Source of the DNA: Kondoa subrosea
Taxonomy: Eukaryota
Assembly (NCBI GenBank): GCA_039545335.1
Contig: BCIN01000003.1
Span: forward strand, 2,365,060-2,429,059
Direction of reading: 5' to 3'
Length of the DNA stretch: 64,000 nt
Below, piece by piece: positions 47,859 to 48,747 of the stretch (positions are counted from its first letter, which is position 1; every line of letters begins with the position of its first letter). A program made the position numbers and the translations under genes. The notes beneath the pieces are model-generated. The model was not told the DNA's origin, did not search any database, and saw only the letters and a program-made list of their open reading frames with translations.

Positions 47859-48747
47859 ATGGCTAGAACTGTTAGTACTATCTTGTTACTTGCATCTGAC
47901 CTCAACTGACTTACTCTGCGTTCTGTACTGTAGAAAGTAAGCGCCTTTTGTTTTGCCATCGACTCTTTCTTCCAATTTCCGATTTCTTGTTTATCTTGCT
48001 CTTTCCTCTGTTTGAAGAGCTCCTGACGTCTGAAGGACATTGTCTAAGCTGTGCTGCATTCATTCGATTCATTCGGTCGACTTGTTGTTCGACAAAACAA
48101 CACTCGTCACCAAATCAAAACAACACCCTTTCTTGCGAAGAGTATCCATACAATGCACAGGGCTATAGCTGACTCATTGTTCTCCTCTCTTAGCAAACCG
48201 CACGCAAAAGTACCGGAGGAAAAGCTCCACGCAAACAACTTGCTGCCAAAGCTGCTCGTAAATCAGCACCTCAAACAGGTGGTGTCAAGAAGCCTCATCG
48301 GTAAGCTGCCTATGCTTTGCTCAGTAGTATACTAGCTAATATGTCAATTGCAGTTATAAGCCTGGAACAGTCGCTCTTCGTGAAATCAGACGTTACCAGA
48401 AGTCGACTGAGTTGCTGATTCGCAAGCTCCCGTGAGTACAGTCTCTCCGTAGCACATCAGTCAGCTGACATGATCCTGTTCAATAGCTTCCAACGCTTAG
48501 TCCGCGAAATCGCTCAGGACTTCAAGACCGATCTGCGATTCCAATCTTCCGCTATCGGTGCCTTGCAAGAATCTGCTGAAGCTTACCTCGTGTCTCTCTT
48601 CGAAGACACCAACTTGGCTGCCATTCATGCCAAGCGAGTCACTATTCAACCCAAAGAGTAAGTCTCTGATCTTTGATGAGCCTAAATATGTCTAAGCTTT
48701 CGAACAGTATTCAACTCGCCAGACGCCTCAGAGGCGAACGCAGTTAG
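47859..48747 (+). CDS. HHT1: Histone H3 (6 exons, including a 3-nt exon)
   Basis: [136 protein letters not shown]. Confidence 0.98.

Follow-up and report, generated by a model that had tools for sequence, protein, structure and literature searches.

The histone H3 gene in the window (the whole 64-kb stretch of DNA analysed here) appears to encode Lys4 alone, on a 3-nt microexon. From the sequence, we put the probability at roughly 0.8 that this microexon is real and is included in the productive mRNA, probably constitutively. A preliminary description of this DNA had assigned K4 to an exon of its own, and its coordinates are confirmed here (Table 1). With the microexon included, the six-exon model (12, 3, 107, 78, 171, and 40 nt) gives a 411-nt CDS of 136 aa with no internal stops, and the product is identical at 136/136 residues to the H3 encoded by a metagenome locus, L001. 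The histone-fold domain of a canonical H3 (PF00125) is present in the gene, and inclusion of the microexon is needed for the full-length tail and a length of about 136 aa. The gene itself is an ordinary histone H3 gene, strongly conserved, from a fungus rich in introns. No second H3 gene was found within the 64-kb window, and the ATGGCNMGNACN+GT...AGAARGT architecture has a single occurrence in the window, at this gene.

Table 1. Exons and introns of the H3 gene, in window coordinates.
Feature	Position	Strand	Remarks
H3 exon 1, 12 nt, ATG GCT AGA ACT = M-A-R-T	47859..47870	+	Sequence read directly
Intron 1, 63 nt, GTTAGT...CTGTAG, phase 0, T3/K4	47871..47933	+	Extra intron
Microexon, 3 nt, AAA = Lys4	47934..47936	+	tag/AAA/gtaagc; 136-aa H3 when included
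Intron 2, 257 nt, GTAAGC...CTCTTAG, phase 0, K4/Q5	47937..48193	+	Position common with the 186-nt first intron of L001
Exon 3, 107 nt, Q5 through base 2 of the R41 codon	48194..48300	+	Length equals L001 exon 2
Intron 3, 53 nt, GTAAGC...TTGCAG, phase 2 in R41	48301..48353	+	Position common with L001
Exon 4, 78 nt	48354..48431	+	Length equals L001 exon 3
Intron 4, 55 nt, GTGAGT...CAATAG, phase 2 in P67	48432..48486	+	Position common with L001
Exon 5, 171 nt, histone fold	48487..48657	+	Pfam PF00125 Histone, E 3.1e-22, 48488-48655
Intron 5, 50 nt, GTAAGT...GAACAG, phase 2 in D124	48658..48707	+	L001 intron instead 5 nt upstream, P122/K123
Exon 6, 40 nt including TAG stop	48708..48747	+	Gene model

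The sequence reads ...ctgtactgtag immediately before the AAA and gtaagc directly after it. At 3 nt the AAA is within the size of ultra-short internal microexons (≤3 nt) and is bounded by the AG acceptor and the GT donor of two complete introns, and the conserved H3 protein is restored only by its inclusion. Exon 1 runs directly into the donor of intron 1, GTTAGT, and the exon that begins with QTAR starts CAA ACC GCA CGC at 48194, preceded by ...ctcctctcttag. The 323-nt gap between these two exons holds one AGAARGT site, and neither the end of exon 1 (ACT/GT) nor the tag/CAA junction is able to give an AAR codon. Thus, tag/AAA/gtaagc is the sole source of K4.

The branch point, acceptor, and donor around the AAA had been described as good, and they do resemble the signals of the gene's other three introns. 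The donors of introns 1-5 are GTTAGT, GTAAGC, GTAAGC, GTGAGT, and GTAAGT. All five fit GTDAGY. Every intron has a branch-like CTRAN site (CTGAC, CTAAT, or CTAAG) located 12-24 nt upstream of its TAG or CAG acceptor; in introns 1 and 2 a CTGAC lies 24 and 21 nt before the acceptor, respectively. The GC content of the five introns is also alike, at 0.38-0.47. GTTAGT is under-represented in the window (9 seen vs. about 35 expected from base composition, both strands) and the counts of GTAAGC, GTGAGT, and GTCAGT are near expectation, these donor hexamer counts being too noisy for a splice-site model. As an uncommon hexamer, the GTTAGT donor of intron 1 may be a weak site.

To estimate chance expectation, the 323-nt gap was shuffled 20000 times with its dinucleotide content preserved. 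AGAARGT appeared in 2.4% of the shuffles, AGAARGTDAG in 0.055%, and YAGAARGTDAGY in 0.02%; given the possible inheritance of AAA+GTAAGC, these figures set a ceiling on how surprising the site is. If AAA+GTAAGC was inherited from an ancestral end of exon 1, as found in L001, then what is left to account for is just the upstream YAG, branch site, and pyrimidine tract. Window-wide, counting both strands, AGAARGT has 41 sites, more than the mean of 22.9 in shuffled sequence; the 41 sites amount to about 0.10 for each 323 nt of a single strand.

The comparison with L001 is the most informative on how the microexon arrangement may have come about. The L001 H3 gene has a 15-nt exon 1 (MARTK), a 186-nt intron at K4/Q5, and then 107- and 78-nt exons. 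It has no T3/K4 intron and its K4 lies inside exon 1, whereas K4 in the window gene is alone on the 3-nt exon. Intron positions common to both genes are K4/Q5, R41 (phase 2), and P67 (phase 2). Toward the 3′ end the genes differ, with L001 introns at P122/K123 and R135/S136 and the window gene instead interrupted in D124 (phase 2). The 12 + 3 nt of the window gene add up to the 15-nt exon 1 of L001, and what the window gene has in addition is intron 1, 63 nt long. Intron 2 is readily interpreted as the homolog of the K4/Q5 intron of L001, and in each gene this is the longest intron. The preliminary description had called the 257-nt intron atypically long. It is long for the gene, whose other introns are 63, 53, 55, and 50 nt, but its length is not tied to the microexon, as the K4/Q5 intron is also the longest in L001. 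In a separate observation, the last exon of L001 is only 6 nt long (one Ser codon plus the stop) and follows a 54-nt intron (L001:2439-2498), which makes it another single-residue exon within the H3 gene family.

The identity of the two proteins is accompanied by substantial divergence at the nucleotide level. The coding sequences differ at 101/411 bases and 86/137 codons, and the GC content is 0.60 for the L001 locus vs. 0.47 for the window. The absence of amino acid changes despite 101/411 base changes indicates that the H3 gene is under strong purifying selection. Among the matches listed in the protein search, those closest to the window H3 are P0129 (97.8%), P0128 (named as Melampsora, 97.1%), and then P0127, and a Puccinia triticina entry is 94.8% identical. 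By this measure the window H3 groups closest, among the matches listed, to H3s of the Pucciniomycotina; because the L001 H3 is 136/136 identical, H3 identity does not resolve taxonomy. A protein search with exon 5 for longer matches gave only fused multi-histone models.

A scan of metagenomes with exon 5 kept 80 H3 loci, and the N-terminus was readable in 66 of these. The N-terminus is contiguous, with no intron, in 51/66 loci. An intron is found in the R8 codon in 11/66 and in the T6 codon in 2/66. A phase-1 intron within the K4 codon (A/AG) and an intron exactly at K4/Q5 were each found in 1/66, the former in a second locus of interest, L038, and the latter in L001. None of the 66 has an intron at T3/K4; the combination of a T3/K4 intron and a microexon is therefore absent from all readable N-termini among the 80 metagenome loci. 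Several of the fungal H3 genes that have an intron near the N-terminus have tiny first exons, like the window gene. Unlike the window gene, they have a single intron there and no codon is isolated as an exon. L038 (1237-1341) is an H3-like gene whose tail is divergent after residue 23; with its phase-1 intron, the intron positions seen within 3 nt of K4 in H3 genes of fungal type come to three. A scan of prokaryote genome contigs for a MART-intron-AAR-intron pattern returned two chance bacterial hits, with no H3 downstream.

Splice sites in fungi are generally recognized by intron definition. We propose that an ancestral 15-nt first exon (MARTK) was split by the addition of a 63-nt intron between the T3 and K4 codons. 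The K4 codon AAA would have been left between the acceptor of the new intron and the donor of the older, long K4/Q5 intron. The new piece looks like a complete intron, with a donor, a branch site, and a YAG that falls precisely on the codon boundary. A parsimony count over the 66 loci, used in place of a tree, points to a probable gain of intron 1 in the lineage of the window. Each intron would be recognized as its own unit. Since the acceptor and donor are only 3 nt apart, the two introns would most likely be removed one after the other. The predicted outcome is that nearly every transcript is spliced to the normal MARTKQTAR... mRNA.

An introner-like repeat origin of introns 1 and 2 was also considered and set aside, as neither has a second copy in the window, where the longest other matches to either intron are 10-19 nt.

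Exons of this size have precedents. A long-read annotation of Coprinopsis cinerea lists 27 three-nucleotide exons, spread over 26 genes, along with 57 exons of 2 nt and 13 of a single nucleotide, and reports an enrichment in cytochrome P450 genes (PMC12230235). The likeness to the window gene is close, in that C. cinerea is also a basidiomycete, its internal exons of 1-3 nt lie between ordinary introns, and their omission breaks or alters the gene model (PMC12230235). The term "histone H3" was not found in five text files of the supplement to that study (PMC12230235). Three-nucleotide exons are also documented in animals and plants, the animal cases including cytohesin-1, RPS24, and MAP4K5. 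In these, as in Xlr2 of Trichoderma (PMC11121469), an exon of a few nt adds a residue or a small segment and skipping keeps the frame, as would be the case here. The available accounts of these systems differ from ours in the kind of evidence: the C. cinerea microexons are transcript-supported (PMC12230235), and the animal and Xlr2 microexons are regulated, with both isoforms observed (PMC11121469 for Xlr2), while the window microexon is predicted from sequence. Intron definition would also make skipping less likely in the window gene than in those cases. Our literature search found no paper linking K4 of histone H3 to a microexon or to an exon of its own, and in Cryptococcus papers the word "microexon" appears only as an aligner setting.

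Of the other explanations, one is compatible with constitutive inclusion. The two 5′ introns could serve in dosage control, with their retention leading to an early stop and degradation of the transcript, and the microexon would then be a by-product. Retention of intron 1 does produce a stop after 16 aa and retention of intron 2 a stop after 34 aa, and the greater length of the K4/Q5 intron in both the window gene and L001 would fit such a role. Early stops are expected by chance, though, in any short AT-rich intron that is retained, and intron 2 is without conserved sequence or structure. A search of Rfam with 47600-48900, at E up to 1, gave no match, hence no snoRNA or other known RNA in the long intron. 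The fold of intron 2 is unremarkable (z −0.41), and no intronic block proved conserved when the three H3 genes (window, L001, and L038) were aligned at their 5′ ends. We regard dosage control through these introns as unlikely.

It is also conceivable that there is no microexon, and that 47871-48193 is one 323-nt intron. The gene would then encode a constitutively K4-less H3 or be a decaying copy, and tag/AAA/gtaagc would be a relic. The AAA+GTAAGC could in that case descend from an ancestral MARTK/GT end as in L001, leaving only the upstream AG to chance, and the microexon was not seen in the other 66 readable loci. Against this, the 63 nt resemble a full intron, with a GTNNGT donor, a CTGAC 24 nt from the YAG, and a typical size. 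The other exons are intact and the 136/136 identity to L001 is reached only with the AAA, which argues against decay. No canonical H3 is known to lack K4. This explanation seems to us quite improbable.

The possibility raised in the preliminary description was that the microexon is a regulated cassette. Joining the exon 1 donor to the acceptor at 48193 would, as was pointed out there, keep the frame and remove K4 only, and the result would be a 135-aa H3 with no internal stop and no Set1/COMPASS methylation at this position. The uncommon GTTAGT donor might make recognition tunable, and Trichoderma, a filamentous fungus, is documented to have a regulated microexon in Xlr2 (PMC11121469). Several lines of evidence weigh against a switch of this kind. 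Intron 1 is a complete 63-nt unit whose branch site lies about 40 nt from its donor; skipping would require that donor to pair instead with the branch site of intron 2, at a distance of about 300 nt. An H3 without K4 would violate an otherwise absolute constraint on the protein, considering the 0 amino acid changes and 101/411 base changes relative to L001. The MARTQTARKS start is found in none of at least 120 H3 proteins among the matches listed for an 80-aa read-through query (74 of them start with MARTKQTARKS), which is weak evidence since the existence of such models depends on annotators. No entry in that list was marked as the H3 of the window itself. Nor did the Rfam search, the fold, the alignment with L001 and L038, or the repeat comparison give any of the conserved flanking intronic elements or structure that would be expected of a regulated cassette. 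Thus, a switch to K4-less H3 is unlikely and is unsupported speculation; as an account of this locus we consider the regulated cassette very improbable.

A sequencing or assembly artefact, in which 63 nt were spuriously inserted into exon 1, has nothing specific in its favor apart from the architecture being unique among the loci examined, and is extremely unlikely. The 63 nt are bounded precisely as an intron and carry intron signals, and no duplicate of them occurs in the window. A GT at the start, a branch site within, and a YAG that coincides with a codon boundary would not be produced by a random insertion.

Downstream of the H3 gene, and tail-to-tail with it, is a lumazine synthase ORF (PF00885; 48959-49492, minus strand). 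Nine consecutive serines precede the domain in its translation and may represent intronic sequence or a low-complexity insert. A 226-aa open frame (46912-47589, plus strand) lies immediately 5′ of the H3 promoter. It has no Pfam match and no homolog in the protein search for longer matches. Atlas weakly suggests a beta-propeller-like protein for this frame, and its leads are generic.

If the K4 microexon were skipped in a regulated fraction of transcripts, e.g., at a life-cycle stage, which we think very doubtful, the resulting tail would be without the Set1/COMPASS lysine and would be shifted by one residue for readers of the extreme N-terminus. The organism would then have a genetically encoded means, controlled by splicing, of making nucleosomes that are unable to carry H3K4 methylation, and chromatin control would gain a new and striking layer.

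The reading that we prefer, a K4 microexon that is real and probably constitutively included, has more immediate consequences for annotation. A 3-nt exon escapes most gene predictors and short-read aligners, and the window H3 is likely to be annotated as K4-less, truncated, or frame-shifted. Two public models of other basidiomycete H3 genes, among the protein matches, fit tiny first exons that were missed by annotators. P0131 (named as Microbotryum saponariae) has an N-terminus that looks like an out-of-frame reading of the H3 tail, and P0183 is a partial H3 model that begins just before QTARKS. "Variant" H3 tails that are inferred from annotations should be checked for a missed microexon. The comparison with L001 also suggests an origin for the microexon, by entry of a second intron into a tiny 15-nt exon, 3 nt from an older intron. 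The acceptor and donor around the AAA, separated by just 3 nt, would make the gene a natural substrate for studying how the spliceosome deals with abutting introns. The main value of the finding is thus as a caveat for annotation and as a clean example of microexon origin.
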